A stretch of DNA of 31,147 bases, taken from a virus. Lineage: Duplodnaviria > Heunggongvirae > Uroviricota > Caudoviricetes. Made by a program: the position numbers and the translations under genes. Below are positions 574-31,147 of this stretch, piece by piece (position 1 is the first letter of the stretch; the number at the start of each line of letters is the position of its first letter). The stretch lies in the IMG/VR virus record IMGVR_UViG_2671180864_000006; one strand, 5' to 3'. The notes beneath the pieces are model-generated. The model did not search any database and was not told the DNA's origin. It saw only the letters and a list, made by a program, of their open reading frames with translations.

Positions 574-1323
574 TCAGATGGTCGAAATCAGCATTCTGTG
601 ACCTTCGATATCCAGACGGCGAAAATTCATCCCATAGGCCTGCGCCAGATTTGGCGGCGTGAGCACCTCTTCTCTGCGTCCACTGGCCAGCATTTTTCCA
701 CCTTTTAGCAACCACGCCCGATGCGCATGACGCAATGTGTGGTTGAGATCGTGACTGCTCATCACAATCGCCAGTCCTTGCTGACACAGAGCGCTCAGAA
801 TTTTGTCTAACGCACTTTGTTGCGCAACATCAAGACTGTTCATCGGCTCATCAAGAAGCAGCAATTGGCCTGCGGGATTGGCTTGTGGTGTGATTTGCAG
901 CACCACCGCAGCAAGACGTACGCGTTGCCATTCACCGCCGGAAAGTTGATTGGTGCTACGTCCGAGTTTGTCATCAAGAGCCAGCGCCCCTGCGACATCA
1001 TTCAGTAGTTCGGTACGCGTTTTATCGTGCTGATGCAGTGTCAGATAGTGCCAGACCGGCATTGCAAACGGCGGCGTCTGCTGTTGTGAAAGATAGGCGC
1101 GATGCAGCGCGAGTTTTGTTGCGGACCATGCTTCCAGTGGTTGCCCCGCGAACTGAATACTTCCCTTACCGCTGGTCATTCCGGCCATTCGTGCCAGTAA
1201 GGTACTCTTACCCGCGCCATTCGGCCCCACCAGGTGCAGGATCTCCCCAGCCCGAACCTCGCCAGAAAGTGGCCCCAGGCGGGTAGATTCCGCAACATCC
1301 TGTAACTGCATCACAATAGACAT
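574..1323 (-). CDS. btuD: Vitamin B12 ABC transporter ATP-binding protein
   Basis: 249-aa ORF with Walker A (GPNGAGKST), ABC signature (LSGGEWQR) and Walker B (LLLLDEP); stop/start overlap with btuE. Confidence 0.92.
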
Positions 1324-1936: not shown

Positions 1937-2917
1937 CTAACGTCCTGCTTTTAACAATAACCAGATAAACACCGGCGCACCCAACGTTGCGGTGACCACG
2001 CCAATAGGCAGCTCTGCGGCAGCTAATGCCAGGCGCGCTACAATATCGGCCAGCAGCACTGCGCTCGCCCCTGCCAGCGCGCAGCCGGGAAGTAATACGC
2101 GATGATCGGTTAAACCACACAACCGAAGAATATGTGGGATCACCAGACCAATAAAGCCGATAGCACCCGCCAGCGCCACACTGACGCCAACCATCCAGCC
2201 GGTCGCTGCCACCAGCACATTGCGCCAGAACCACAGGGGTAAACCCAGTTGCCGCGCCGAGATCTCGCCAAGTGCTAACATATTCATCGGCCTGGACTGA
2301 CAACAGATCCACAACAACACGGGGATCAATGCCAGCATCAGCCAGCTTTGCCGCCAGTCTACGCCGCCAAAACCGCCCATCATCCAGTACATCAGCTGAC
2401 GTAAATCAACAGAGGTGGAAAAGTAGATAGCCCACGTCATTAGTGCGCTACAGATAATCCCTAATGCAACGCCAGCCAGCAATAACCGACTGGTCGAAAG
2501 ATGACGACGGGCGAAACGTAAGAGTATTAAAGTGATGATAAGCGCGCCAGCAATCGCACACAGCCCTAGCGCCCAGTTGGGGAGTTGCCCTTGCCCAAGC
2601 AATACCGCGGCGATAAGCCCCACGCCTGCGCCGTTAGAGACGCCAAGTAGTCCAGGTTCTGCCAGAGGATTTTCAAACAACGCCTGCATTACAGCGCCGG
2701 ATATAGCCAGCGCCGCACCAACCAGCAATACAGCCAGCGTACGTGGCAGGCGAATTTGCCAGACGAACAGTTCGCCACGAGGAGTAAACCAGTCACCTGG
2801 CGAAATCCATTGTTCACCGGCGCAAAGGCTTAAGAGAAGCGCCAGCAGCATCAAAACTGACAGGCATAATAACCAGCGAATATTTTGTCGCTGTTGTTGG
2901 CGGGCAAGTGTCAGCAT
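1937..2917 (-). CDS. btuC: Vitamin B12 ABC transporter permease
   Basis: 326-aa polytopic hydrophobic ORF of the FecCD/BtuC permease type; first gene of the btuCED order. Confidence 0.9.
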
Positions 2918-2974
2918 GGTATCCGTTCTGCTGAAGTGTCATGGCGTTGATTTTACGGTGACTCTTCGACAGTG

Positions 2975-3000
2975 AAAAGAAAAAAGGCCGCAGAGCGGCC
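2975..3000 (-). terminator. Rho-independent terminator for the leftward int-cargo transcript
   Basis: Perfect GC hairpin GGCCGC-AGA-GCGGCC (2986-3000) preceded on the plus strand by an A-run (2975-2985), which is a U-tract after the hairpin on the minus strand; lies about 110 bp downstream of the 3110-3664 ORF and just upstream of btuC. Confidence 0.55.
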
Positions 3001-3109
3001 ATAAACACAAACAAAAATCAATAAGTTAGGTAATTATCAAAGACTTACAGACACACAAAAACACAGCCAACCACAACAAATAACAGAGATGTGGTCAATT
3101 TGTGGATCA

Positions 3110-3664
3110 TCAGCCAACAAATTTAGCAACAAATACAGCAACCGCCGCTGTGAAAATGGTTGTGCACACTGGCACAATAATGCCACTCCAACGCCACTTC
3201 GTATTATCATCAACCTTGTCAAACCGCCGATTCATCTCATCCATAATCTTGTCAAAGCGTTTATCCATCGCTTCGGTAAGCTCACCCTTCAGGCTGTTAA
3301 TGTCTGATTTGAGCTGCTCTTTCAGGTTAGCTGTATCAGATTTAAGCTCACCTTTCAGATTCGCAATATCGCATTCAAGATCACCTTTCAGATGTGCTAT
3401 GTCTGCTTTGAGTTCACCTTTCACCTCACCAACATCGGCTTTAGTTGAGAGGTTTGTAGTGCGTTCAGCAAGCGTCGCAAGGTCGTTTCTTGTTAGCGAT
3501 AAATCACCTTCGAGCCGCTCAATTCGCCTTTCAAGTTTATCTGACATTCCGCCTCCACTACTGCCGCCATCGCCACCATGATAAAGCACATCACGCTCAG
3601 AATGCGACACACTACCTGCTGAATTACCGAAAAGATTTCTTGCTACATTACCCATTATCACCAT
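3110..3664 (-). CDS. Coiled-coil protein with C-terminal transmembrane anchor (XhlA-like architecture), prophage cargo
   Basis: 184-aa ORF: Gly/Ser-rich N-terminus, five tandem 11-residue repeats (e.g. KADIAHLKGDL, ECDIANLKGEL), then a hydrophobic C-terminal helix (IIVPVCTTIFTAAVAVFVAKFV). AT-rich. Overlaps the upstream ORF by 17 nt. Start could be 3664 or 3655. Confidence 0.6.
   Translation of the reverse strand: MVIMGNVARNLFGNSAGSVSHSERDVLYHGGDGGSSGGGMSDKLERRIERLEGDLSLTRNDLATLAERTTNLSTKADVGEVKGELKADIAHLKGDLECDIANLKGELKSDTANLKEQLKSDINSLKGELTEAMDKRFDKIMDEMNRRFDKVDDNTKWRWSGIIVPVCTTIFTAAVAVFVAKFVG
3280..3444. repeat. Five tandem imperfect 33-bp repeats inside the 3110-3664 ORF
   Basis: Units recur with 33-bp period (plus-strand motif CACCTTTCAG...GATTT); they encode the 11-aa coiled-coil repeats. 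Confidence 0.75.
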
Positions 3665-4148
3665 CCTGCGCTTTGTCTTTCTCCAACCACTTCAGCACCG
3701 CAGACGTACGATAAAGGCTCAGGTAACCACAATTCAGGCAATGCAGCGTGTAATAAGTTTTGCGCATATCAGGTATGCTCTTAACATCACCCAAAAAAGC
3801 ATAAGATACATAATGCTTTATGTTCTCTTTAATTAACTCACTCTGTTCCTCCAGGGGTAGATTGTTAAAATTTTCTGGTTTCTTATTTTTATCCCAGCAA
3901 AGATCCATACTTTCTGGAACAGATAATCGCGACGATCCACATGAAGGGCAGACACTGGAGACCCCCTTCTCAGACAAGAAACGGAAGAAGATTTCTGGCG
4001 TAATCTCCATCAGCCGCTCTTTATGTTTTTTGACACGACTCATCGACTTCTTATTGATTTCATCAGCTTCTTCTTTGCATTTATCTTCTATATATTTCGA
4101 TAGTAAATAGTCATATAACTCTTTTTTTGTAGGTTTTTTTATTTCCAT
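3648..4148 (-). CDS. Hypothetical zinc-ribbon protein, prophage cargo
   Basis: 166-aa ORF with a basic Lys-rich N-terminus and two Cys pairs (CPSCG ... CLNCG); very AT-rich; its ATG (4148) lies within a few bases of the int stop, suggesting translational coupling. Confidence 0.6.
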   Translation of the reverse strand: MEIKKPTKKELYDYLLSKYIEDKCKEEADEINKKSMSRVKKHKERLMEITPEIFFRFLSEKGVSSVCPSCGSSRLSVPESMDLCWDKNKKPENFNNLPLEEQSELIKENIKHYVSYAFLGDVKSIPDMRKTYYTLHCLNCGYLSLYRTSAVLKWLEKDKAQDGDNG

Positions 4149-4150
4149 AG

Positions 4151-5128
4151 TTACATTCCTCCCAAGGGATTAAACCTCACCGCATCCTGCAAGTAATCCG
4201 GCGCAAGATGGGCATAAATCATCGTTGTCTGAATCTTTGCGTGCCCCAGAATTTTCTGGAGCGTCAGAATATTGCCGCCGTTCATCATGAAATGACTGGC
4301 GAAGGTGTGGCGCAGCGCATGAACAGCCTGGCCGTCAGGAACATCAGGTGCGACCGTTTTGATGACATCGCGAACCAATGAATAATCCAGCGTCGGAAAC
4401 ACCAGTTTCCCGCCCCGTTTTTTGATCTTTTCAAACAGGCTTTCAGAAATAGGAACGGTACGGTTTTTGCTGTTCTTCGTTTTTGAAAAAGTGATTCGAC
4501 AATGAAGAACACGGCGCTGCTCCAGTGCCGCTACCTCGCCCCATCGCGCCCCGGTCGACAGAAGGATTTCGACGGCCAGCCGTTCATCGGGATTTTCAGC
4601 CAGTGCATCCAGCAACTGAACACATTCAGACTTACTCAGATATCCCATTTCACGCTCGTTAACCTTCATTCCTTTAAGGCCTTGAACGGGGTTATCGTTA
4701 AGAAAATGGCCGGATGAGATGAGTGCGGTAAACATCGCGCTTAACGCCCCAATCTCTCGATTTATGGTGCTGGGCTGTATCCCCTGCTCTATCCTGGACA
4801 CACGTAGCTCGGTGAGCATCGTTGTATTAAGTTTATGCACGCACGGGTCATCCATTGCCTCACTCAAGCGCAGCAATTTAAGGCGCGTGTTATGCCCTGA
4901 CTTCATTAGCTGGCCGTGGTATTTCCACCACAAGTCAATAAGCACTGACAGCGGACGGCGATCAATGGAGTTTCCTTTCCACTCATTGTTATGCTGTTGC
5001 GCCAGCACCCACCGCTCATATAAAACTGCATCCGATTTCGTTTTAAATTTTTTGCGAATGCGTTTGCCTTTACGCCCCTCAGGACGCATGTCAAGAAGAT
5101 ACCCTCCCGGAATTGATTTTATGCTCAT
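4151..5128 (-). CDS. int: P2-type tyrosine integrase
   Basis: Strong similarity to P2 Int as recalled, from MSIKS... onward; catalytic motifs ARWGE, HALRHTFAS and the C-terminal catalytic Tyr region (LGHAKIQTTMIYAHL). The ORF track's 50-aa N-terminal extension (to 5278) is judged spurious. Confidence 0.92.
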   Translation of the reverse strand: MSIKSIPGGYLLDMRPEGRKGKRIRKKFKTKSDAVLYERWVLAQQHNNEWKGNSIDRRPLSVLIDLWWKYHGQLMKSGHNTRLKLLRLSEAMDDPCVHKLNTTMLTELRVSRIEQGIQPSTINREIGALSAMFTALISSGHFLNDNPVQGLKGMKVNEREMGYLSKSECVQLLDALAENPDERLAVEILLSTGARWGEVAALEQRRVLHCRITFSKTKNSKNRTVPISESLFEKIKKRGGKLVFPTLDYSLVRDVIKTVAPDVPDGQAVHALRHTFASHFMMNGGNILTLQKILGHAKIQTTMIYAHLAPDYLQDAVRFNPLGGM

Positions 5129-5177: not shown

Positions 5178-5489
5178 TTAGCCGGGCTGTGTGCCAGTCT
5201 TGCGGGATTTTTGAGAAGACGATGTGTTTTCTGGCCCATCAGGGGAGAGAGAAGGACTGATCTGCCCAGCAGCCTCATTTGTTTCGTTACTCATCAACCA
5301 CGTAGTGTATTTTTTAAATTCCGGGTGCATTGTGATTTTCAGTAAAACCTCCGTTCCCACACCTCGAATACCAGTCTCGTATTGCTTAACCGTACCAACC
5401 GCAATACCTATTGAATCCGCGAACTTTGCCTGACTAAGCCCCTCAGATTCTCGAATTGCTTTTAGCTTCTTTGATATCTCTATTGACAT
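5178..5489 (-). CDS. Immunity repressor, P2 C-like (HTH)
   Basis: 104 aa from MSIEISKK; HTH region (LSQAKFADSIGIAVGTVKQYETG) and overall layout resemble P2 C; sits immediately upstream of int on the same strand, as in P2. Confidence 0.75.
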   Translation of the reverse strand: MSIEISKKLKAIRESEGLSQAKFADSIGIAVGTVKQYETGIRGVGTEVLLKITMHPEFKKYTTWLMSNETNEAAGQISPSLSPDGPENTSSSQKSRKTGTQPG

Positions 5490-7923: not shown

Positions 7924-10746
7924 ATGACGGCAGAGTACATCAGGGACTGGCAACAACCGCGCCACGCAGTGGGGCGTGAAGGAACGGGGATCCCCGCTCC
8001 TGAATCCGCGCTTTCCTCCTGGCTGGATGCCCACCGGGCAGAGAACGAGCGCCGCCAGGAAATGGCTGATGCGGCGTTCTCCGCCACGCCACTGGGCAAC
8101 CTGATTAATAAAAGCCTGGACGCACAGGAAAAACAGGACAAAACCATCACACTGGCAGGAGACGCCAGAAAACAGGCACGCGGCGCGGTGGATGAAGCCA
8201 TGGCCTCGCTGCGCCTGCTGCCGTCCTATCTGCGCGATCCGCTTATTCGCCACCTCTCCTTCCTGCGCAAAAAACAGGAAGCCGATCGCCGGAAAGGCAA
8301 AAAGAGCTGGCAGGCGGAACGCTATGCACGCGGAACCCTGCGCAAAATATTCGAACGTCTGGATCGCACTGACGGACACTGGCTGACACCGGGTTATCGC
8401 TCCCTTGCCGGACGTGAACGCCTGGACGATTTGCTTTACCTGCCGCAACTCAACAAACACCAGATACAGACGCTGGCCACCATGACGGCGGCGATGTTCA
8501 GCAGCACCTTCGAAAAACTCTGCGATGGTTTTGGCGCGACTGATGGCGAGCTGACCATGGATGTAACGCTGAAGGCGTATCAGATGCTGGCCCGCATGGC
8601 GTTACACTTACACGCCATGCCTCCGCATTATGACGCACTGACAACAGACAAAGACCGGAGGCACGAACCGGACACAGAACTGCTGCCGGGCGCAATCCTT
8701 CGCCTGACCTGTGCGGAATGGTGGAAACGCAAACTGTGGCTGTTACGTTGCGAGTGGAGAGAAGAACAACTTCGCGCCGCCTGTCTGGTTTCCAGAAAAA
8801 CATCGCCCTATCTGAGCCAGGACGCGTTAAGCGAGTTTCGCGCACAGCGCGAGAAAACACGCGATTTCCTGAAAAGTTTCATGCTGGAAAATGAAGACGG
8901 GTTCACGATTGATCTCGAGACGGTGTATTACGCGGGAGTAAGTAACCCGGTTCACCGTAAGGCAGAAATGATGGCCACCATGAAGGGGCTGGAACTTCTG
9001 GCCGAAGCCCGTGGCGACAAAGCGGTGTTTCTGACTGTCACCTGCCCGTCAAAATACCACGCCACAACGGAGAACGGTCATCCGAATCCCAAATGGAACG
9101 GGGCCACAATGCGCGACTCCAGCGATTACCTGGTTAACACGTTTTTTGCGACGGTCCGCAAAAAACTGAACCGCGACGGCCTGCGCTGGTATGGCATCCG
9201 CACGGCGGAGCCTCACCATGACGGCACCGTGCACTGGCATATGATGGTCTTTGCTCATCCGGAAGAAATCGACACCATTGTGTCCCACACCCGCGATATT
9301 GCCATTCAGGAAGATCGTCACGAGCTGGGCGATGACATAACTCCGCGCTTTAAGGCGGAGTATGTAGACGGCTCAAAAGGCACGCCAACCAGCTACATCG
9401 CCACCTACATCGGGAAAAACCTGGACAGCCGCGCCGTGGATGGCATCGACCCGAAAACGGGCAAGCCACGCGTTGACCACGAAACCGGAAAATCAATGGC
9501 CGAGAGCGTGGAACGCGCCATCGGCTGGGCGCGCCTTCACCGGGTCCGCCAGTTCCAGTTCTTTGGCATCCCCTCCCGCCAGGTATGGCGTGAACTGCGC
9601 CGCCTTGCCAGCCAGATGGCACGCAACCCGGAAGGCCCGCAACGGCTGAAGGATGACGCAATGGATGCGGTTCTTGCCGCCGCTGATGCCGGATGTTTTG
9701 CCACCTACATAGAGAAACAGGGCGGCGTACTTGTTCCACGCAAAGACTACCTGATTCGCACCGCCTACGACCTCGCCGATGAGCTGAACGATTACGGCGA
9801 ACAGAGCGTACAGATTTACGGGATCTGGTCACCACTCATCGGGGAATCCTCCCGTGTGTGCACGCATCCGGATAACTGGAAGCTGGTAAGACGCAAACCG
9901 GAAGCGGAAGACAGCGCCCGCGAAAATGGTTTTGACCTTCAGGGCGGCCCTGCCGCCCCTTGGACTCGTGGCAATAACTGTCCCCGTGTACAGGAAACGG
10001 ACAACAACGGGACAGAACAGCCGGAAGAACGGCCAGCACCGTGGCCGCAGCTCCCTGACGGCGTTGATGTGGATGAATGGATGCGCTCACTGAAACGGCA
10101 CGAACGCCGGGCGCTGATGCGTTCGCTTCGTGACAAACAGGCAAAAAACAGCAGTGATGAAATGCAGAGCTGGACACAGAGCCGCAAACAGCAGCGGCCT
10201 TTGCCTGATAACCACGAATTACTCGCTAAAGAATGGCGGGAGTCTGCTGAATCTCTCGGCCTGCATATCGGTGAACAACAGATGCAGCACCTGTTACGGG
10301 GCGGCAGTCTGTACGTTGACGGCAGCATCATTGCACCGCAGGGATTTGAAATTGTACGCAAACCGGATACCCGCCCGGACAGCCGAATCACGCAGCTCTG
10401 GCAGCGCCTGAGCCGTAATCATGGCGTAAGCAGCACGGAGATCCGCCATAACCCGGTCGCCAGCTATCTGACACAGCTGGGGGCATCAGACCCTGAAGCC
10501 GCCGCACGCCTGGCATCCACACTTCAGCAGGACCAGAACACCATGAAAACACCCGTTACCGTGCTTTCTGACATGCTGCGCGCCATCCGCGACGCAGAGC
10601 ACGCACAGAGAATCAGTGAAACCACTGAACGCGCCCGCCGCAAAGCAGACCTGCTGCGGGGTGGCCTGACCAGTGGAAACAAAAAACAGACAGAAACGGG
10701 ACTCACGAATCCCGTAAATGAGCAAAAAACGCGCAGCGATATATGA
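7924..10746 (+). CDS. A: Replication initiation endonuclease, P2 gpA-like (rolling-circle HUH)
   Basis: 940-aa ORF with HUH motif (GTVHWHMMVFA) and paired-tyrosine motif (SYIATYIGKN); carries a long low-complexity C-terminal region that makes it longer than P2 gpA as recalled. Confidence 0.88.
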   Translation: MTAEYIRDWQQPRHAVGREGTGIPAPESALSSWLDAHRAENERRQEMADAAFSATPLGNLINKSLDAQEKQDKTITLAGDARKQARGAVDEAMASLRLLPSYLRDPLIRHLSFLRKKQEADRRKGKKSWQAERYARGTLRKIFERLDRTDGHWLTPGYRSLAGRERLDDLLYLPQLNKHQIQTLATMTAAMFSSTFEKLCDGFGATDGELTMDVTLKAYQMLARMALHLHAMPPHYDALTTDKDRRHEPDTELLPGAILRLTCAEWWKRKLWLLRCEWREEQLRAACLVSRKTSPYLSQDALSEFRAQREKTRDFLKSFMLENEDGFTIDLETVYYAGVSNPVHRKAEMMATMKGLELLAEARGDKAVFLTVTCPSKYHATTENGHPNPKWNGATMRDSSDYLVNTFFATVRKKLNRDGLRWYGIRTAEPHHDGTVHWHMMVFAHPEEIDTIVSHTRDIAIQEDRHELGDDITPRFKAEYVDGSKGTPTSYIATYIGKNLDSRAVDGIDPKTGKPRVDHETGKSMAESVERAIGWARLHRVRQFQFFGIPSRQVWRELRRLASQMARNPEGPQRLKDDAMDAVLAAADAGCFATYIEKQGGVLVPRKDYLIRTAYDLADELNDYGEQSVQIYGIWSPLIGESSRVCTHPDNWKLVRRKPEAEDSARENGFDLQGGPAAPWTRGNNCPRVQETDNNGTEQPEERPAPWPQLPDGVDVDEWMRSLKRHERRALMRSLRDKQAKNSSDEMQSWTQSRKQQRPLPDNHELLAKEWRESAESLGLHIGEQQMQHLLRGGSLYVDGSIIAPQGFEIVRKPDTRPDSRITQLWQRLSRNHGVSSTEIRHNPVASYLTQLGASDPEAAARLASTLQQDQNTMKTPVTVLSDMLRAIRDAEHAQRISETTERARRKADLLRGGLTSGNKKQTETGLTNPVNEQKTRSDI

Positions 10747-10822: not shown

Positions 10823-11782
10823 ATGAAAATTTGTATCGACGACGGCTCCACCAACATCAAGCTGGCATGGACTGAGAACGGCGAACGCCGCAACGCCATC
10901 AGCCCGAACAGCTTCAAGTCGGAATGGTCTGCGCCGTTCGGTGGCATGCAGCCCGCGAACTACATGCTTGATGGCGTGCGCTATGGTTTTGATCCGGTCA
11001 GCGATCGCTTTGTCCAGACAACCGACACGCAATACCAGTACAGCGATGTAAATGTCATTGCCATTCATCACGCGCTGGTCAAATCAGGCATCACGCCACA
11101 GGAGGTGGATGTGGTTGTCACCCTGCCACTGAGCGAGTATTTCGACACAAACGCACAGCCGGACATGGCCAACATCAACCGCAAAAAAGCGAACGTTATG
11201 CGCCCGGTGGAGTACCAGAACGGCGAAGCATTCACTATCCGTAACGTGCGGGTTATGCCTGAATCCATTCCGGCTGGCTTTAAGGCACTGGCTGACATGA
11301 GTCCGTTTGAATCCCTGCTGATTGTGGATTTGGGCGGAACCACGCTGGATGTGGCAAAGGTTCAGGGGCAACTGGCAGGTATCAGCCAGGTGTTTTGCGA
11401 TCCACACGTAGGCGTTTCTCTGATGGCCGATGCCGTACTGTCGGTGATGGCCACTAACGGTATGCGCACCAGTCACCACATCGCCAATACCATTATCGAA
11501 CATCGCCATGATGAAGCCTGGCTGCGCCAGCACATCCACAATGACGCGCATTACGCCAGCCTGATGGCGGTTATTCGTGAAAAGGAAGAAACACTGAAAC
11601 AACGCGTGATCCGCGCGCTGGCGGGTTTTTCGGGTTACGGGCGGGTGATGGTTGTCGGTGGAGGGGCGGAGATTGTGGCACCCGCTATCCGCGAAGCCTG
11701 CGGAGTTAATGCGACTTTCATCGCGGACGGGGTGCCACAGTTTGCTCTGGTTAATGGGCTGTACGCAATGGACAAGGAGTAA
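10823..11782 (+). CDS. parM: Actin-like segregation ATPase, ParM/StbA family
   Basis: 319-aa ORF with actin-fold phosphate-1 (ICIDDGSTNIKL), phosphate-2 (IVDLGGTTLDV) and adenosine (VMVVGGGAEI) motifs, plus several short blocks matching plasmid R1 ParM as recalled (SPNSFK, YSDVNV, INRKK, LVNGLY). Confidence 0.8.
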   Translation: MKICIDDGSTNIKLAWTENGERRNAISPNSFKSEWSAPFGGMQPANYMLDGVRYGFDPVSDRFVQTTDTQYQYSDVNVIAIHHALVKSGITPQEVDVVVTLPLSEYFDTNAQPDMANINRKKANVMRPVEYQNGEAFTIRNVRVMPESIPAGFKALADMSPFESLLIVDLGGTTLDVAKVQGQLAGISQVFCDPHVGVSLMADAVLSVMATNGMRTSHHIANTIIEHRHDEAWLRQHIHNDAHYASLMAVIREKEETLKQRVIRALAGFSGYGRVMVVGGGAEIVAPAIREACGVNATFIADGVPQFALVNGLYAMDKE

Positions 11783-11786
11783 ACCA

Positions 11787-12098
11787 ATGACGACACCAAC
11801 CAGACGGATAAGTTTCTATCTGAAGCCTGCGGCCGTCAAGAACGAAAGCGAAGCATGCGCCTGGCTGGGCAGCCTTACACCAGAAGCCCGCAAAAGCGGC
11901 CAACGCGTGGCTTTTCTGGCCGGGCTGGCACTTCTGAAAATGAATCCAGCAGAGGCTTACCGACTGGCTGCATGGGCTGACGATGAGGCGTTATCGGTGA
12001 CACAAACCAGGACAGAACGCCCCGTGCCACAGCCAGTACCAACCGCACAGATAACCAGTCAGATAGCAGGGAATATCCGGGCATTATTTCCTGAATGA
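11787..12098 (+). CDS. parR: ParR/StbB-like small DNA-binding adaptor
   Basis: 103 aa from the ATG 5 nt after the parM stop, with AAGGAG RBS; resembles ParR in size and N-terminal pattern (ISFYLKP, RVAFLAGLAL), from memory. The track's 148-aa form overlaps parM and is rejected. Confidence 0.55.
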   Translation: MTTPTRRISFYLKPAAVKNESEACAWLGSLTPEARKSGQRVAFLAGLALLKMNPAEAYRLAAWADDEALSVTQTRTERPVPQPVPTAQITSQIAGNIRALFPE

Positions 12099-12158
12099 CG
12101 AATTTGACGGCTTTTAATTTTATCGGGGTGCACTGTCGCCCCGCACGAGGAAAACACG

Positions 12159-12683
12159 ATGAAAAAATACGAATACATGCTAATGAAAGAAGCACTGCGG
12201 GCTGGTCTGGCTCCCTGTCCTGTATCCGTAGAAGCTGTTGTTGGGAACACGATTTTCCGAACGCTGCGAAATCGCGTATCCGTGAAGATGGTTCACCAAC
12301 CACCCAAATCTACCAGCATGATCTATCTGCCGCTGCCCGAGGCTATCAAACTTATGCGTTCGCTGAAATTTGCGATTTGGATGCAGACACAAATCAACAA
12401 AGCGGTGCAAAACACCTTCGTTAAGAGACTAATACCGGAGCTTGCTGCCAGATGTGCAAAATGTACCAGACCCGCACTTCAATTTGATCTGTCATTGATT
12501 CAACAAGCTACGGAGGCAGAACTGTACCGCCTGTCACCTATCCGTGATGCTCACACGGAAGCATCAGAAATGTTCCGGCTCATGTTTCAATTTAATTTTG
12601 CCGTTCGACGCACACGCGTTCAGGTCAATCGCATGATGCAGGAGCAGGAAGAGTTAACACAGTACAAAGGGGGCAGCCAGTGA
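12159..12683 (+). CDS. Hypothetical protein, accessory-locus cargo
   Basis: 174-aa ORF with GAGGA RBS; no recognisable motifs. Confidence 0.55.
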   Translation: MKKYEYMLMKEALRAGLAPCPVSVEAVVGNTIFRTLRNRVSVKMVHQPPKSTSMIYLPLPEAIKLMRSLKFAIWMQTQINKAVQNTFVKRLIPELAARCAKCTRPALQFDLSLIQQATEAELYRLSPIRDAHTEASEMFRLMFQFNFAVRRTRVQVNRMMQEQEELTQYKGGSQ

Positions 12684-13119: not shown

Positions 13120-13159
13120 AGGTAAGTCACACTAGGTGTTTTTTAGTTGATTTTATAAA

Positions 13160-13267
13160 TGCACAATAGTGCACAAATTTGCACAATTTTTTTGAACGAC
13201 TTTTTGCCCTTCCGGCCCGCGTGGCGGCTGGATCCGTCAAGGATCCGTGCATGCACAAAAAAACGCG
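13160..13267. repeat. Helically phased TGCACAA repeats and GGATCCGT direct repeat in the cos-proximal region
   Basis: TGCACAA at 13160, 13170 and 13180 (10-bp period) and again near 13250; GGATCCGT twice (13230-13237, 13241-13248); a GCGTGGCGG motif at about 13219-13227 resembles the start of P2/186-type cohesive ends. Confidence 0.5.
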
Positions 13268-13560
13268 TTTTTTCTGCGCGCAGGTGACGGGGGAACAGCC
13301 CGCGTTTCAGGGGGTAAATAGCATTCCCTGAACGATGTCGCAGAGATACAACAGAATGGCTGTATTTCTCACGCTGAGCGTGAAAAAGACGTGAGGGCTT
13401 TTGATTTGATGGGGTGAAAGGTAAGGCCGTCAAAATCGCACTGAGACGGCGAGAATATGCAGTCAACGAGGTGGGATTGCGTAAGAGTCTGACTGTCGAT
13501 GATGGCAATCAGCAGGAAAGCGTCGTGAAATTATCTGACTGATACAGGAGCTGGAGAGTC

Positions 13561-24926: not shown

Positions 24927-26897
24927 ATGAGTACCACAACACGAAAATTTAAAACCATTATCACCGATACGGGTGCAAAAAAATTAGCGCAGGCAACCGC
25001 GCCAGATGGGAAACCTGTCCGCCTGACACATATGGCCGTGGGTGACGGCGGCGGTACTTTACCCACGCCAGACAGTAAGCAGACCCGTCTTGTGCATGAG
25101 GTGTGGCGACATACCGTTAATCGCGTCACCCTGGACGCAACACATCAGAACCACATTATTGCGGAGCTGGTTATTCCTCCTGAAACGGGCGGATTCTGGA
25201 TCCGGGAAATTGGTGTGTTTGATGAGCACGGCGATTTGATCGCGGTAGGCAATACTGCCGAAAGTTACAAGCCAACCGTTGCCGAAGGATCCGGACGTGC
25301 ACAAACATTTCGCACCATTCTGACCGTATCCAGCACTGCCACTGTGGCGCTTACCGTGGATAACACCATGGTGATGGCCACAGTGAATTACGTGGATGAC
25401 AAACTGAAAGAGCATGAACAGTCACGACGTCACCCGGACGCCTCGCTGACCGCAAAAGGCCTTGTCCAGCTCAGCAACGCCACCAACAGCACGTCTGAAA
25501 CGCTGGCAGCGACACCAAAAGCCGTTAAGGCAGTAATGGATGAAACGAACAAGAAAGCCCCATTAAACAGCCCGGCACTGACCGGAACGCCAACAACACC
25601 AACTGCGCGACAGGGAACGAATAATACCCAAATCGCAAGCACGGCTTTCGTTATGGCTGCGATTGCCGCACTTGTAGACTCTTCGCCTGATGCACTGAAC
25701 ACACTGAACGAGCTGGCGGCGGCGCTGGGCAACGACCCGAATTTTGCGACCACCATGACTAACGCGCTTGCGGGTAAGCAACCGAAAGATGCCACTCTGA
25801 CGGCGCTGGCGGGGCTTGCTACTGCGGCAGACAGGTTTCCGTATTTTACGGGGAATGATGTCGCCAGCCTGGCAACCCTGACAAAAGTCGGGCGGGATAT
25901 TCTTGCGAAATCGACCGTTGCCGCCGTTATCGAATACCTCGGTTTACAGGAAACGGTAAATCAGGCTTCTGGCGCATTACAGAAAAACCAGAACGGCGCA
26001 GATATTCCGGGGAAAGATACCTTCACCAAAAATATTGGTGCCTGCCGCGCATATAGCTCATGGCTGAATATTGGTGGCGATAGTCAGGTCTGGACAACCG
26101 CGCAATTTATTTCGTGGCTGGAGAGTCAGGGAGCATTTAACCATCCTTACTGGATGTGCAAAGGCTCATGGGCTTATGCAAATAATAAGGTCATTACAGA
26201 TACAGGTTGCGGAAATATTTGTCTTGCAGGTGCTGTGGTGGAAGTTATTGGCACTCGCGGCGCAATGACCATACGCGTTACCACGCCGAGCACGTCCAGC
26301 GGTGGCGGAATTACTAACGCTCAATTCACTTATATTAATCATGGTGATGCTTACGCTCCTGGCTGGCGACGAGACTACAACACGAAAAATCAACAACCTG
26401 CATTTGCTTTAGGGCAAACAGGAAGCACTGTCGGAAATGATAAAGCTGTTGGCTGGAACTGGAATAGCGGGGTCTATAACGCAAACATTGGTGGCGCATC
26501 GACATTAATCCTCCACTTCAATATGAATACGGGGAGCTGCCCTGCTGTACAGTTCCGCGTGAATTACAGGAACGGCGGTATTTTTTATCGTTCAGCGCGT
26601 GATGGTTATGGCTTTGAAGCTGACTGGTCAGAGTTTTACACCACAACCCGCAAACCCTCTGCGGGAGATGTTGGTGCATATACGCAGGCAGAATGTAACT
26701 CAAGGTTTATTACAGGTATTCGCCTTGGTGGTCTGTTATCTGTTCAGACATGGAATGGTCCCGGATGGTCTGACAGGTCAGGTTATGTTGTTACCGGTTC
26801 CGTTAACTCAAACAGAGATGAACTAATTGATACAACTCAGGCAAGGCCAATTCAGTATTGCATTAATGGGACGTGGTATAACGCGGGGAGTATTTAA
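24927..26897 (+). CDS. H: Tail fibre protein, P2 gpH-like, with a currently joined variable C-terminal module
   Basis: 656-aa ORF whose N-terminal region is of the P2 gpH type; the C-terminal part downstream of an internal crossover site (25927-25952) resembles the other variable cassettes in this window. Confidence 0.88.
   Translation: MSTTTRKFKTIITDTGAKKLAQATAPDGKPVRLTHMAVGDGGGTLPTPDSKQTRLVHEVWRHTVNRVTLDATHQNHIIAELVIPPETGGFWIREIGVFDEHGDLIAVGNTAESYKPTVAEGSGRAQTFRTILTVSSTATVALTVDNTMVMATVNYVDDKLKEHEQSRRHPDASLTAKGLVQLSNATNSTSETLAATPKAVKAVMDETNKKAPLNSPALTGTPTTPTARQGTNNTQIASTAFVMAAIAALVDSSPDALNTLNELAAALGNDPNFATTMTNALAGKQPKDATLTALAGLATAADRFPYFTGNDVASLATLTKVGRDILAKSTVAAVIEYLGLQETVNQASGALQKNQNGADIPGKDTFTKNIGACRAYSSWLNIGGDSQVWTTAQFISWLESQGAFNHPYWMCKGSWAYANNKVITDTGCGNICLAGAVVEVIGTRGAMTIRVTTPSTSSGGGITNAQFTYINHGDAYAPGWRRDYNTKNQQPAFALGQTGSTVGNDKAVGWNWNSGVYNANIGGASTLILHFNMNTGSCPAVQFRVNYRNGGIFYRSARDGYGFEADWSEFYTTTRKPSAGDVGAYTQAECNSRFITGIRLGGLLSVQTWNGPGWSDRSGYVVTGSVNSNRDELIDTTQARPIQYCINGTWYNAGSI
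25927..25952. promoter_or_regulatory. Crossover site A (gix/pix-like) inside H
   Basis: TTATCGAATACCTCGGTTTACAGGAA, 23/26 identical to the Mu gixL sequence as recalled; encodes IEYLGLQE at the constant/variable junction. Confidence 0.6.
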
Positions 26898-26899
26898 CG

Positions 26900-27433
26900 A
26901 TGATGCACTTAAAAAACATTTCTGCTGGTAATCCTGAAACAAAAGAGCAATACCAGCTAACGAAACAATTTAACATCAAATGGCTTTATACAGAGGATGG
27001 GAAAAACTGGTATGAGGAACAAAAGAACTTTCAGCCTGATACGTTGAAAATGGTCTATGACCACAACGGCGTTATTATTTGTATTGAAAAGGATGTTTCA
27101 GCAATTAATCCGGAAGGCGCAAGCGTCGTTGAGGTTCCTGATATTACAGCAAATCGCCGGGCTGATATTTCAGGTAAATGGATGTTCAAAGATGGCGTAG
27201 TGATAAAGCGAACTTATACCGGGGAAGAGCAGAGGCAACAAGCGGAAAATGAAAAGCAAAGCCTGCTACAGCTCGTCAGGGATAAAACCCAGCTATGGGA
27301 CTCACAGCTACGGCTGGGCATTATTTCCGACGAGAATAAACAAAAATTAACCGAGTGGATGCTCTATGCGCAGAAGGTCGAATCCACAGACACCTCCAGC
27401 CTGCCAGTAACGTTTCCCGAACAACCAGAATGA
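26900..27433 (+). CDS. G: Tail fibre assembly protein, P2 gpG-like
   Basis: 177-aa ORF; close paralogue of the 29029-29562 ORF. Confidence 0.85.
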   Translation: MMHLKNISAGNPETKEQYQLTKQFNIKWLYTEDGKNWYEEQKNFQPDTLKMVYDHNGVIICIEKDVSAINPEGASVVEVPDITANRRADISGKWMFKDGVVIKRTYTGEEQRQQAENEKQSLLQLVRDKTQLWDSQLRLGIISDENKQKLTEWMLYAQKVESTDTSSLPVTFPEQPE

Positions 27434-27436
27434 AAC

Positions 27437-27463
27437 AAGGCCCGATATCGGGCCTTAATTTTT
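27437..27463 (+). terminator. Rho-independent terminator after G
   Basis: Palindrome AAGGCCCGATATCGGGCCTT followed by AATTTTT. Confidence 0.55.
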
Positions 27464-27629
27464 ACTCAGGCTTTTGTGGCCATTCTGGCTTTGCCGTATC
27501 CACACGGCTGACCAGAACACTGTAGCGTTCCCATGCTTCCAGTCGTGTGCGTTCCTCGTCCGTCGCCATATTCAGCCTGACAGCGCGTTCCAGCGGCTGG
27601 ATGACTGATTCAGCTTCGGTCGACGTCCG
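27456..27629 (-). pseudogene. 3' remnant of a convergent tail-fibre assembly gene
   Basis: Identical to the 3' end of the minus-strand assembly gene at 29591-29747; ends at a junction with invertase sequence at about 27629/27630. Confidence 0.7.
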
Positions 27630-28061
27630 CCTGTGCGCCCCCGTGCGCGTGCTGCCGCCAGTCCGGCCAGTGTACGTTCAACAATTAATTCACGTTCCAT
27701 TTCAGCCAGGGCACCCATCACGTGGAAGAAAAAACGCCCCAAGAGAAGATGTATCTATGCTGTCGGTCAGACTGCGAAAATTAATTCCTCGCTCCCGTAG
27801 TTCCCCGACGAGAGAAATCAGATGTTTCATGCTTCGCCCGAGGCGATCCAGTTTCCAGACAACCAGCGTGTCACCTTTTTGAAGGCGCTTTAAAGCACGT
27901 TTTAATCCAGGTCGGCCTGTCCTTGTTCCGCTTAATTTATCTTCAAATATTTGTTCATATCCTGCACAAACAAGAGCGTTTCGTTGCAGGTCTGTATTCT
28001 GGTCATTTGTTGATACCCTTACATAGCCAATCAGCACGCTGAATCTCCCGTCCAAAAGCAC
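27630..28061 (-). pseudogene. Serine DNA invertase (Gin/Pin/Cin/Hin family), truncated and frameshifted
   Basis: N-terminal catalytic domain intact (GYVRVSTNDQNTDLQRNAL...) but the frame breaks after DSIDTSS at about 27715 (apparent 2-bp deletion); the alternate frame continues as [22 protein letters not shown]...GGRRPKL and then fuses to the assembly-gene remnant, so the C-terminal HTH domain is missing. Confidence 0.8.
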
Positions 28062-28091
28062 AAATCATGCCATGCAGGCCAGAAACCGCCA

Positions 28092-28117
28092 TTATCTAAA
28101 ACCTCGGTTTACGAGAA
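28092..28117. promoter_or_regulatory. Crossover site B (gix/pix-like)
   Basis: TTATCTAAAACCTCGGTTTACGAGAA, 23/26 identical to the Mu gixL sequence as recalled; same orientation and reading-frame relation as site A, but with TAA in the first half. Confidence 0.6.
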
Positions 28118-29026
28118 CTCGGCACAAGCGGGGAGAAAATACCGTTACTCAGTACAGCGAATACCTGGACTAATCGACAAACATTCAGCGGTGGCCTTTC
28201 TGGTGAACTATCCGGCAATGCTTCTACAGCTGCAAAATTAAAAACTGCCAGGAAAATAAGCAATGTGGCTTTTGATGGTTCCTCCGATATCACATTAAAA
28301 GCAAGTCATGTTGGTGCGTTTGCCTTAGGGAAAACAGGAAGCACCGTTGCGAATGATAAAGCAGTTGGATGGAACTGGAGTAGCGGAGCCTATAACGCAA
28401 CTATTAGTGGTGCATCAACGTTAATTATTCATTTTTATATGGGAGAAGGAAGTTGTCCTGCAGCTCAGTTTCGGATTAATTATAAAAATGGCGGTATTTT
28501 TTATCGTTCAGCCCGTGATGGTTATGGTTTTGAAGCCGACTGGTCCGAATTTTACACCACCAGAAAACCTTCAGCAGGAGATGTTGGTGCACTGCCGTTA
28601 TCTGGTGGTCAACTGAATGGTGCACTGGGTATCGGAACATCCAGTGCTCTTGGCGGTAATTCGATTGTATTGGGTGATAATGACACGGGCTTTAAACAAA
28701 AAGGCGATGGTAATCTGGATGTTTATGCTAATAACGTCCATGTTATGCGCTTTGTCTCCGGAAGCATTCAAAGTAATAAAACCATAAATATTACGGGACG
28801 TGTTAATCCCTCGGATTACGGTAACTTTGATTCCCGCTATGTGAGAGATGTCAGACTTGGCACACGAGTTGTTTAGACCATGAAGAAAGGCGTGATGTAT
28901 GAAAAATCAGGCCATGTAATCACGGGGCTTGGTATTATCGGTGAAGTCGATGGTGATGATCCGGCAGTATTCAGACCAATACAAAAGTTAATTAACGGAA
29001 CATGGTATAACGTATCGCAGGTATAA
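28100..29026 (+). pseudogene. Promoterless alternative tail-fibre C-terminal cassette with an in-frame amber codon
   Basis: Frame is open from site B (NLGLRELG...) and related to the H C-terminus (KAVGWNW, GIFYRSARDGYGFEADWSEFYTT); TAG at 28874-28876 interrupts it, and the same frame continues to a conserved fibre C-terminus ([11 protein letters not shown]) ending at 29026. Confidence 0.7.
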
Positions 29027-29028
29027 TC

Positions 29029-29562
29029 ATGCAGCATTTAAAAAACATTGTCGCAGGTAATCCAAAAACCGTTGAACAATACCAGCTAACAAAGAATTTT
29101 GATGTTATCTGGTTATGGTCCGAAGATGGAAAAAATTGGCATGAGGAATTAAAAAACTTTCAGGAGGATACAATAAAACTGGCTTACACAGTTGAGGGAA
29201 TAATTATTGCTATAGACAAGGATGTATCAGCAATTAATCCAGAAGGTTTAAGTGTCGTTGAGTTGCCTGATATTACAGCAAATCGCCGGGCTGATATTTC
29301 GGGCAACTGGATGTTCAAAGATGGTGCGGTGATAAAGCGAACTTATACCGAGGAAGAGCAAAGGCAACAAGCGGAAAATGAAAAGCAGAGCCTGCTGCAG
29401 CTCGTCAGGGATAAAACCCAGCTGTGGGACTCTCAGCTACAGCTGGGCATCATTTCCGATGAGAATAAACAAAAATTAACCGAGTGGATGCTCTATGCGC
29501 AGAAGGTCGAATCCACAGACACCTCCAGCCTGCCAGTAACGTTTCCCGAACAACCAGAATGA
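29029..29562 (+). CDS. Tail fibre assembly protein for the second cassette
   Basis: 177-aa paralogue of gpG; C-terminal third is near-identical at the DNA level to G. Confidence 0.8.
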
Positions 29563-29565
29563 AAC

Positions 29566-29592
29566 AAGGCCCGATATCGGGCCTTAATTTTT
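29566..29592 (+). terminator. Hairpin terminator between convergent assembly genes
   Basis: Same AAGGCCCGATATCGGGCCTT palindrome plus AATTTTT as at 27437-27463. Confidence 0.5.
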
Positions 29593-30118
29593 ACTCAGGC
29601 TTTTGTGGCCATTCTGGCTTTGCCGTATCCACACGGCTGACCAGAACACTGTAGCGTTCCCATGCTTCCAGTCGTGTGCGTTCCTCGTCCGTCGCCATAT
29701 TCAGCCTGACAGCGCGTTCCAGCGGCTGGATGACTGATTCAGCTTCGGAAAGCAATGCGGCCTTTTGTGATTCGGCCTGTTGTTGCTGTTCGTCAGCCGT
29801 ATAAATCCGTTTAACCACAGCTCCGTCCTTAAACATCCACTTACCGGAATCATCAGCACGACGATTAGCTGTAATATCAGGAACCTCAACGACGCTATAA
29901 CCTTCAGGGTTAAGCGTGGAGGCATCTTTGGTGATGGCGACAATAATATTATTTGCATCGTAAACAATCTTTATTGTGTCTGGCTGAAAGTTCTTCACTT
30001 CCTCATACCAGTTTTTTCCGTCCTCAGAGTAAAGCCAGATGACTCCGTGCTTCTTTGTTAACTCATACTGCTCCACTGTTTTAGCATTACCTGCTTTTAT
30101 GTTCTTTAAGTGCATCAT
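29591..30118 (-). CDS. Tail fibre assembly protein for the third (inverted) cassette
   Basis: Minus-strand gpG/Tfa homologue starting [11 protein letters not shown]; the track's 11-aa N-terminal extension is probably spurious. Confidence 0.75.
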
Positions 30119-30119
30119 A

Positions 30120-31147
30120 TTAAATACTCGCCACATTATACCAAGTGCCATTTATATACTTTTGCACTGGCCTGTAATGAACGCCTGCAATATTATCGGC
30201 AGAGTTTTTTCCGGTATCCTGTACGTTAATCCCCGTCAGTACATAGCCTGACGGGCACTGAAAATTCCATGTTTGCCAGTTGTTCACTCCATAATATTGC
30301 TGTGAACCAAGTCGAACATCTTTCACATATCTGGAATCAAAATTGCCATAGTTGCCGGGAATAACTTGCGAGCCGCAAAGCCAGTTCCCGTTATTATCCA
30401 TGTACGCCTGACCATCGGTGCCATTGGCTGTCCTTGAGTTATTAATCATGTAGATGCCAAATTGCTTATTTCCCAGACCGCCAATCATAAATTTGCGGTC
30501 GGCATGGTCCTGACGGAGCAAAGCCTGAGCACCATCAGTGGATACCGCATTACGTCCCAAAATAACATTCTGGTCACGCATATGAATCCACATGCCGGTA
30601 CTACTGTTAATTGCAAAACGGTTTGCAAATATATCCCCTGTAACATCAAGACCATGCCCCATGCTTATCCGGCCAGTTCTGAGATTAAGCGTAAAGGGGC
30701 GTAGTGGCCCTATATTACCATTTTCCCCTTCATTCTCTCGTGTAGGGATGATATGCAGGCATTCTTCAGAACGACGAAAAATGGCACCAAAAGATGAATT
30801 AAATATCCTCAGTGCATTGACTGTCGATATTTTCACTTCACTGCTGAAAAGGGCTTCAACAAGAACAGACAAAGCATTCCATTTAAGATTCATCAGGTCT
30901 TTAGGCCGGGTGCCAATGATGCGGTGTCTCCATTTGAAATATTCATTGCCGTTGTTGCCTGTTTCAAACCACATGTAGGAATCGGTGTCTGCATCCGAAT
31001 TATTTTTAAACCCAATCTTTGCCCAGTCAGTATTTCGAATCCAGGCAAGGATTGAGTCGTTTTCAAAAGTAAGTCCACCGGACAACGTATCGCCATTTTT
31101 TTGCACGGCGTTACCAGCCTTGTTTACCGTTTCCTGTAAACCGAGGT
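30120..31147 (-). CDS. Third alternative tail-fibre C-terminal cassette, inverted orientation (partial; open frame leaves the window)
   Basis: Minus-strand ORF ending in a conserved fibre C-terminus ([11 protein letters not shown]); the frame stays open upstream through site C, encoding ...[21 protein letters not shown], the same junction peptide as in H. Confidence 0.75.
31131..31147. promoter_or_regulatory. Crossover site C (gix/pix-like), inverted relative to A and B, cut by the window end
   Basis: TTCCTGTAAACCGAGGT is the reverse complement of the right half of sites A and B. Confidence 0.55.

Follow-up and report, generated by a model that had tools for sequence, protein, structure and literature searches.

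The 31,147-nucleotide viral record IMGVR_UViG_2671180864_000006 (Caudoviricetes), referred to here at its full length as the window, carries a P2-like prophage in which two overlapping genes, designated A and B, lie between the integrase gene (int) and the junction with the host chromosome. We propose, tentatively, that the pair forms a self-contained, horizontally exchanged two-protein module that is expressed in lysogens and has a role in conflict, either exclusion or abortive infection. The anatomy of the pair is strongly supported and we are highly confident of it. A conflict function is the leading and most likely reading: the genes sit in a hotspot, their GC content is low, they have moved among different types of phage and they show extreme allelic turnover inside flanks that hardly differ, all of which suggests such a role indirectly. 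Sequences compared with the window are denoted by L numbers where they need to be told apart.

The window is 99.9-100% identical to the genome of Escherichia coli O26 strain RM8426. It opens with host genes on the minus strand (nlpC, btuD, btuE and btuC, the last ending at 2917) and the remainder is the prophage, inserted between btuC and ihfA and carrying portal, capsid and tail genes in addition to those listed in Table 1. The int gene lies upstream of the two-gene cassette on the same strand; its product is 325 amino acids (aa) long according to RefSeq (99.9% identical record), with the longest open reading frame (ORF) reaching 5278. In genomes that are free of the prophage, the match to the window ends at position 3000. 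At its opposite end the RM8426 prophage borders on ihfA, and there (attR) a 25-mer, GGCCGCTCTGCGGCCTTTTTTCTTT, is found that is identical to window positions 2999-2975. This repeated 25-mer is the attachment (att) core and, at the same time, the intrinsic terminator of ihfA. Since the core lies outside the pair and is duplicated beside ihfA, the prophage carries the two genes as cargo in the interval from int to attL; the position of the core rules out their being host genes or genes of another element. A first-pass annotation, made from the letters of the window alone, had placed a two-gene cassette between int and the host junction, and had pointed to an att core between int and these genes as the sign of a different origin. 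Both ORFs are real, and the core was located beyond them.

The exact copy of the ihfA terminator in the att core (window 2975-2999 and L002 10422-10446) means that integration regenerates a terminator on both sides of the prophage: at attR it follows ihfA, and at attL it follows the phage cargo and lies upstream of btuC. A terminator scan places the hairpin GGCCGCTCTGCGGCC and its T-run at 3000-2986, about 110 nt downstream of the gene B stop, and found no earlier terminator after gene B. The terminator predicted before btuC by the first-pass annotation is thus real, but it is not specific to the cassette, being the att core itself. The stretch between the cassette and the core is 94-99% identical among prophage variants whatever cargo they carry, homology restarts at exactly 3110 in L004, L029 and L031, and all classes of the 306 related genomes described below match positions 1-110 of the query; it is presumably the attP arm.

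Gene A follows int at a distance of only 2 nt and has a GGAGGA sequence upstream of its start, in agreement with the earlier description of a 166-aa gene beginning within a few bases of the int stop. The start of gene B requires revision. The longest ORF (3110..3664, minus strand, from ATG 3664) gives the 184 aa and the 17-nt overlap with A that were first reported. Divergent E. coli, Salmonella and Providencia homologues start at an ATG whose overlap with the upstream stop is 8 nt (ATGnnTAA), and the residues that follow it, MGNVARN... in the window, are kept at the protein level. By this comparison the true start in the window would be ATG 3655, giving a protein of 181 aa and an overlap of 8 nt. 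RefSeq instead starts B at ATG 3547 (145 aa), which drops the conserved N-terminal region.

The cassette lies on the same strand as the repressor gene (C) and int, and the terminator scan detected no terminator between C-int and the att hairpin. Both genes most likely ride the lysogenic C-int transcript, which would end at the hairpin of the att core; together with the short gap after int and the overlap of the two genes, this arrangement bears out the translational coupling that had been described. The GC content is 38.5% for A, 45% for B, 49% for int and 55% for btuC; the prophage averages 52%, and just 1.4% of its 500-nt windows are at or below 40%. The reported AT-richness is therefore clear for A and moderate for B, and the low GC of A is as expected for acquired cargo. 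With ratios of nonsynonymous to synonymous substitution rates (dN/dS) of 0.16-0.24 (A) and 0.35-0.57 (B), both genes are under purifying selection; conservation and dN/dS together rule out spurious ORFs.

A prophage with this int and attP arm was found in 306 of 5426 complete E. coli genomes. Its variants are 98-99% identical in int and in the region 2900-3110, and they lose homology exactly between 3110 and approximately 4158-4167, the edges of the cassette. At least five alternative contents occupy the space between these flanks. The allele of the window is present in 23 of the 306 genomes and the CUVET allele, a pair of 120 and 145 aa, in 86; the slot may also hold a pair of 127 and 99 aa, an unannotated A of about 129 aa together with a B, an allele of the pair at 54% identity, or an unrelated single protein of 131 aa. 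The contents other than the 131-aa gene are very divergent alleles of one A/B system. Variable cargo had been anticipated at this junction in other prophages and does occur there, but much of it consists of divergent alleles of the same pair.

The 131-aa protein is the commonest content of the slot; it is encoded at L004 5308-5703 in strain DEC9B and is present in 157 further genomes. Cysteine motif, TM (transmembrane) helix and partner are all lacking, Pfam and PADLOC gave no match, and at 19% identity the protein was rejected as a degenerate A.

Exchange also takes place inside gene B. In PS1Thumoskin9 the breakpoint falls within B, such that 143 of 145 residues from MSDKLERR onwards are those of the window protein, whereas A and the 31-residue N-terminal peptide of B are both replaced. 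In a comparison of the window with L009, A has a synonymous divergence (dS) of 1.3, against 0.09 in B and 0.05 in int, and within B the identity is 28 of 36 for residues 1-36 and 139 of 145 for the rest. This joint replacement of A and the N-peptide, while the stalk stays, suggests that they form a matched unit, most simply a binding interface, with the stalk and membrane anchor as the constant part.

Such joint exchange would also fit the cognate neutralizing contact of a toxin-antitoxin (TA) or addiction module, in which B is a membrane-damaging toxin that A, translated along with it, restrains and which stabilizes the prophage, perhaps serving as an abortive-infection switch as well. A small first gene that runs 8 nt into the second is a layout typical of type II systems; B has a single TM helix, and the presence of a Hok/Gef toxin at the other end of the prophage indicates that modules of this sort are collected by it. 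However, A shows neither the fold nor the family membership of a DNA-binding antitoxin. B greatly exceeds the known small membrane toxins in length, and a simple toxin would have no evident use for the conserved stalk of B, whose length varies. Searches of Pfam, NCBIfam and PADLOC for a type II system gave neither an antitoxin DNA-binding domain nor a toxin family, nor any other TA-family match, and we consider a TA module distinctly unlikely.

The module behaves as a unit well beyond this prophage lineage. Ten distinct contexts of A homologues were sampled (E. coli L009, CUVET20, F344 and PS1; Salmonella; Providencia; Klebsiella; L014, L017 and L024), with further A/B examples in L026 and L028; those examined include the 54%-identical E. 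coli allele. In all ten a B-type gene lies directly downstream of A, and the junction is an overlap of 1-11 nt, a gap of a few bases, or a stop followed by an in-frame GTG. The hosts of the pair include P2-like, 186-like (L014) and other prophages, L017 being of a different myovirus type. All ten B partners have a coiled coil and a C-terminal TM helix, and the Gly/Asp-rich tract is present in nine of the ten; it is absent or degenerate in L026. Even where similarity is low, the B proteins share one plan: a variable N-peptide, usually the Gly/Asp tract, a helix of the form LExRVxxLExD, usually a motif of the ATKxD type, and the TM helix. A narrow-alignment scan of species-representative genomes returned two loci only.

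In the Klebsiella (L005 3006-3125) and PS1 (L030 approximately 850-960, minus strand) alleles, A and B share a reading frame and are separated by a stop directly followed by GTG (TAAGTG, TGAGTG), after which the sequence is conserved (GITL... and the Gly/Asp tract). These junctions suggest termination-reinitiation or, possibly, stop-codon readthrough to give an A-B fusion.

The module was found in at least four kinds of position (the int-att slot, next to ogr, the repressor-int interval and the tail-gene region), which indicates that it is mobile in its own right. Several of these positions are reported cargo sites. Hotspots of defence or accessory genes in P2-like phages, according to a 2026 survey, include the int-att slot, listed for P2 as a minor defence hotspot, and the tail-gene region (PMC13586616); in K139-like phages a hotspot has been reported between the repressor and int (PMC9122126). 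In its general plan, the pair resembles the sensor and membrane-effector systems of prophage hotspots, such as the TIR plus TM system of the P2-like phage AC1 and the hydrolase plus TM system of P4: a two-gene module of a soluble and a membrane protein, on the lysogenic strand, in a slot with swapped cargo. RexAB of phage lambda is likewise a prophage defence system with a cytoplasmic sensor and a membrane effector. Unlike RexAB and the AC1 and P4 systems, to which A and B have no sequence or fold relationship, B combines a single tail-anchor helix with a long stalk rather than forming a multi-pass channel.

Protein A is soluble and belongs to a small group: a profile search of 1.84 billion representative proteins yielded only 90 relatives. 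An alignment of 35 diverse homologues, extending down to about 20% identity, contains six invariant residues (Cys67, Cys70, Cys137, Cys140, Gly141 and Trp154). The two invariant CxxC knuckles support a putative four-cysteine metal site of the zinc-ribbon type, and the assignment of A to that type in the first-pass annotation gains from the invariance of all four cysteines. An AlphaFold2 (AF2) model of A (predicted local distance difference test score, pLDDT, 82.8) has a long N-terminal helix (residues 8-46) followed by a mixed α/β domain. No curated zinc-ribbon family in Pfam or NCBIfam reached its cut-off with A, and no solved zinc-ribbon fold matched in the PDB or BFVD. The sole clear family match is to PHROG 4293, of unknown function; tblastn searches of phage and plasmid collections gave no match to A, and PDB sequence searches gave none to A or B.

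Protein B was modelled as a single chain with AF2. Residues 1-35 are disordered, helices span 37-70 and 75-147 with a break at 71-74, and a TM helix covers 150-180; the coiled coil and single C-terminal TM helix that had been described from the letters were recovered by hydropathy (residues 159-177) and by the model. The helix break coincides with the motif LSTKAD. In membrane proteins of the DUF1640 family, the stalk starts with a β-layer of the form [aliphatic]-A-T-K-[polar]-[DE] (Hartmann et al., PMC4786415), which LSTKAD fits with Ser replacing Ala; other alleles have FATKSD. Residues 75-129 consist of five 11-residue (hendecad) units, and the lengths of B homologues step by multiples of 11 (192/181/170/159/148 and 145/134/123/112 aa); Salmonella allele s1 has one additional unit. 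The number of hendecads varies between homologues. As only four residues follow the TM helix and B has no signal peptide, the protein is predicted to be tail-anchored in the inner membrane with its bulk in the cytoplasm.

The B partner in the 186-like prophage (L014 4431-5063) contains six tandem 9-residue units (TATKADLQN/FATKADLQS), which are repeated β-layer nonads as described for α/β coiled coils. In its sister genome, L015, the B gene is split in two inside the nonad repeat.

Table 1. Features of the prophage left end and cassette, in window coordinates.
Feature	Position	Strand	Remarks
attL core	2975..2999	-	GGCCGCTCTGCGGCCTTTTTTCTTT, copy of the ihfA intrinsic terminator; terminator scan and genome comparison
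Presumed attP arm, conserved and non-coding	3001..3109		109 nt, between cassette and att core
Gene B	3110..3655	-	181 aa from conserved start ATG 3655 (predicted); 8-nt overlap with A stop
Predicted C-terminal TM helix of B	3125..3181	-	IIVPVCTTIFTAAVAVFVA, residues 159-177; Kyte-Doolittle 19-residue maximum 2.43
33-nt tandem repeat in B	3319..3423	-	Hendecad coiled-coil units xxxLKGELKxD; Tandem Repeats Finder (TRF) period 33, 3.2 copies
LSTKAD β-layer motif of B	3434..3451	-	Residues 69-74
N-terminal peptide and Gly/Asp-rich tract of B	3548..3655	-	Residues 1-36 (...HGGDGGSSGGG)
Gene A	3648..4148	-	166-aa ORF; ATG 2 nt past int stop (TAA 4153-4151)
Second CxxC knuckle of A	3729..3740	-	CLNC, residues 137-140, followed by invariant Gly141
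First CxxC knuckle of A	3939..3950	-	CPSC, residues 67-70
P2-type tyrosine integrase (int)	4151..5128	-	Pfam Int_N 2.1e-28, Phage_integrase 5.7e-20
Shine-Dalgarno sequence of gene A	4157..4162	-	GGAGGA, within last int codons, 8 nt upstream of A start
C-type helix-turn-helix (HTH) repressor gene	5178..5489		Precedes int
GpA replication endonuclease	7924..10746		

Family searches place B near two groups of tail-anchored stalk proteins. It matches PHROG 9415 (E value 6.5e-15, function unknown) and reaches 24.1 bits (E value 3.7e-05) against the Pfam CCDC90-like family (PF07798), short of the gathering score of 33.5 bits; several close homologues carry a precomputed PF07798 match, and the RefSeq name is DUF1640/CCDC90 family protein. 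Among labelled sequences, tblastn puts B closest to solo DUF1640 genes of Liberibacter and APSE phages and to the Bdr proteins encoded by Borrelia prophages. On these grounds B is probably a tail-anchored stalk of the DUF1640/Bdr type. Members of PF07798 include the mitochondrial proteins MCUR1 and CCDC90B, gp26 of Liberibacter phage SC1 and P47 of APSE-1. With these B shares the β-layer motif at the start of the stalk and the single C-terminal TM helix; it differs from them in its sub-threshold score, in having a disordered N-peptide and Gly/Asp tract where MCUR1 has a folded head, in its variable number of hendecad repeats and in its four-cysteine partner, which is absent from the solo phage DUF1640 genes. 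Since those genes of other phages have no A partner, the pair is a distinct arrangement. Like the Bdr proteins of the cp32 prophages, B is prophage-borne and has a hydrophobic C-terminal membrane tail and central 11-residue coiled-coil repeats; the repeats of Bdr also vary in copy number. The tblastn match to Bdr (34-36% identity over about 100 residues, E value 1e-5) is weak and lies in a low-complexity coiled coil, and no zinc-ribbon-type partner is known for Bdr. The Bdr proteins are inner-membrane proteins of undiscovered function (PMC10016077).

These relationships would also be in keeping with a lysogenic-conversion or host-physiology scaffold that recruits a cytoplasmic partner to the inner membrane and alters the stress tolerance of the host or the maintenance of the phage as an episome, instead of acting against other phages. 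B has the β-layer motif and architecture of DUF1640 and resembles, at about 35% identity over some 100 residues, an inner-membrane prophage protein with 11-residue repeats; the prophage moreover carries a parMR partition cassette. Bdr, MCUR1 and CCDC90B, and the tail-anchored ElaB and YqjD proteins of E. coli, may be comparable scaffolds. However, the extreme replacement of alleles within 98-99% identical flanks and the repeated placement in hotspots favour an arms race, and the solo DUF1640 phage genes, with no A partner, differ from the pair in arrangement. A scaffold role in host physiology is, in our judgement, unlikely.

The short coiled coil followed by a C-terminal TM helix in B also recalls XhlA, the lysis-associated membrane protein of PBSX, and the first-pass annotation had suggested a search for XhlA-like haemolysins. 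A function of the pair as an accessory of lysis or holin control in the lytic cycle of the phage itself would be in line with sub-threshold XhlA matches of short B alleles, which span most of the model (18.5 bits for the F344 allele and 17.3 bits for L014), with weak PHROG matches of B to holins, haemolysins and spanins (E values 0.004-0.03) and with the one prophage that has the pair among its late tail genes. The XhlA scores, however, fall far below the gathering score of 34.7 bits, and XhlA (PF10779) does not occur among the 25 families listed for the window protein out of 26 at E values up to 1, so that the suggestion was not borne out. Here and in most other prophages the pair is part of the lysogenic operon of repressor and int, which lies at a distance from the late genes and runs in the opposite direction, with no neighbouring holin or endolysin and with a zinc-ribbon-type partner, unlike XhlA. 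The pair is missing from about half of the otherwise near-identical prophages, which indicates that it is not needed for lysis. This is the weakest of the alternatives and we regard it as very improbable.

Returning to a conflict role, the pair might work as follows. Protein A would bind the N-peptide of B where this caps the stalk, which is probably trimeric, giving a membrane-tethered complex that projects roughly 10-17 nm into the cytoplasm; A and the N-peptide would confer specificity, and the stalk and TM helix would stay constant. The complex would be made in lysogens from the C-int transcript, ending at the att hairpin, and may act there against other mobile elements. In an exclusion mode it would obstruct, at the inner membrane, the DNA or proteins of an incoming phage; in an abortive-infection mode, infection would trigger membrane damage. 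A more specific form of this proposal, which we consider doubtful, is that the pair represents a new prophage immune or exclusion family, in which a rapidly exchanged four-cysteine head sits on a matching N-peptide at the end of a trimeric α/β coiled-coil stalk that is tail-anchored in the inner membrane, the gain and loss of hendecads serves as a length ruler, the head senses a phage component at a set distance below the membrane and the stalk relays the signal so as to block entry or kill the cell.

Several observations weigh against a conflict role. Comparison of A and B with known defence, exclusion, toxin and lysis proteins showed no likeness. PADLOC-DB v2.0.0 returned nothing for A, and its matches for B (LmuB, ZorA and LeoBC, 14-21 bits) are all of the coiled-coil type; three other alleles likewise gave only coiled-coil noise. 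Neither protein has a match above the cut-offs of Pfam or NCBIfam, and across Pfam, NCBIfam, PHROGs and PADLOC the pair and the three alleles gave only the two PHROGs of unknown function (9415 and 4293) and sub-threshold coiled-coil or zinc-ribbon noise. A structure search, of the kind that had been proposed, found no fold matching A in the PDB or BFVD, the relatives of B (DUF1640 and Bdr) offer no known function, and no paper on the A or B proteins was found in the literature. A promoter scan of the cassette strand detected neither Pc nor an internal promoter. The unrelated 131-aa protein fills the slot in 158 of the 306 genomes, about half of the lineage, and the hotspot position amounts to guilt by association only. 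The A-B contact, trimeric state, topology and transcription from Pc are all inferred. Should the pair have no anti-phage effect, it would be an ordinary prophage moron.

Other parts of the prophage also hold accessory genes. A plasmid-type partition cassette occupies the cargo hotspot between GpA and the portal gene (window 10823-12098, plus strand) and encodes a ParM/StbA actin-like ATPase (Pfam E value 2.7e-82) and a Plasmid_stab_B/ParR-like protein (5e-23). An integrating phage would not usually carry genes of this kind, which hint at a stage spent as an episome. Pfam and PADLOC gave no match for the ORFs behind the cassette (12095-12683 and 13143-13508). At the right end of the RM8426 prophage, outside the window (L002), a 500-aa PIN-domain protein is encoded between a gpD-like gene and ogr, the Hok/Gef toxin lies between ogr and attR, and a serine O-acetyltransferase gene adjoins the tail genes. 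The tail-fibre region (24927-30151) contains duplications (26399-27373 and 28315-29502, at 71-91% identity), two tail-fibre assembly genes (26900-27433 and 29029-29562) and a Caudo_TAP gene on the opposite strand (29591-30151). The duplicated segments, the two assembly genes and the oppositely oriented Caudo_TAP gene together suggest alternative or invertible fibre ends.

Variable and often defensive int-att cargo in P2-like prophages has already been published (PMC13586616); the two-protein module, its allelic series and the exchange of head plus peptide appear to be uncharacterized so far. The window and CUVET alleles alone occur in 109 of the 5426 complete E. coli genomes, approximately 2% or more, and carriers include serogroups O157, O26, O103 and O145; the pair is also found in Salmonella, Klebsiella and Providencia. 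On a practical note for annotation, RefSeq shortens gene B and sometimes misses gene A, for example the upstream four-cysteine gene of PS1Thumoskin9 (L030 848-1330). The modular build, with a swapped head and N-peptide, a constant stalk and anchor and 11-residue steps in length, makes the system experimentally tractable. Should a conflict function be confirmed, the catalogue of defence and exclusion systems would gain one unlike its present entries. Study of the pair could inform the large and functionally blank class of DUF1640/Bdr tail-anchored stalks. If the reading as a new immune family proves true, the pair would offer a first functional handle on prokaryotic DUF1640 proteins and on the Bdr proteins of Borrelia.

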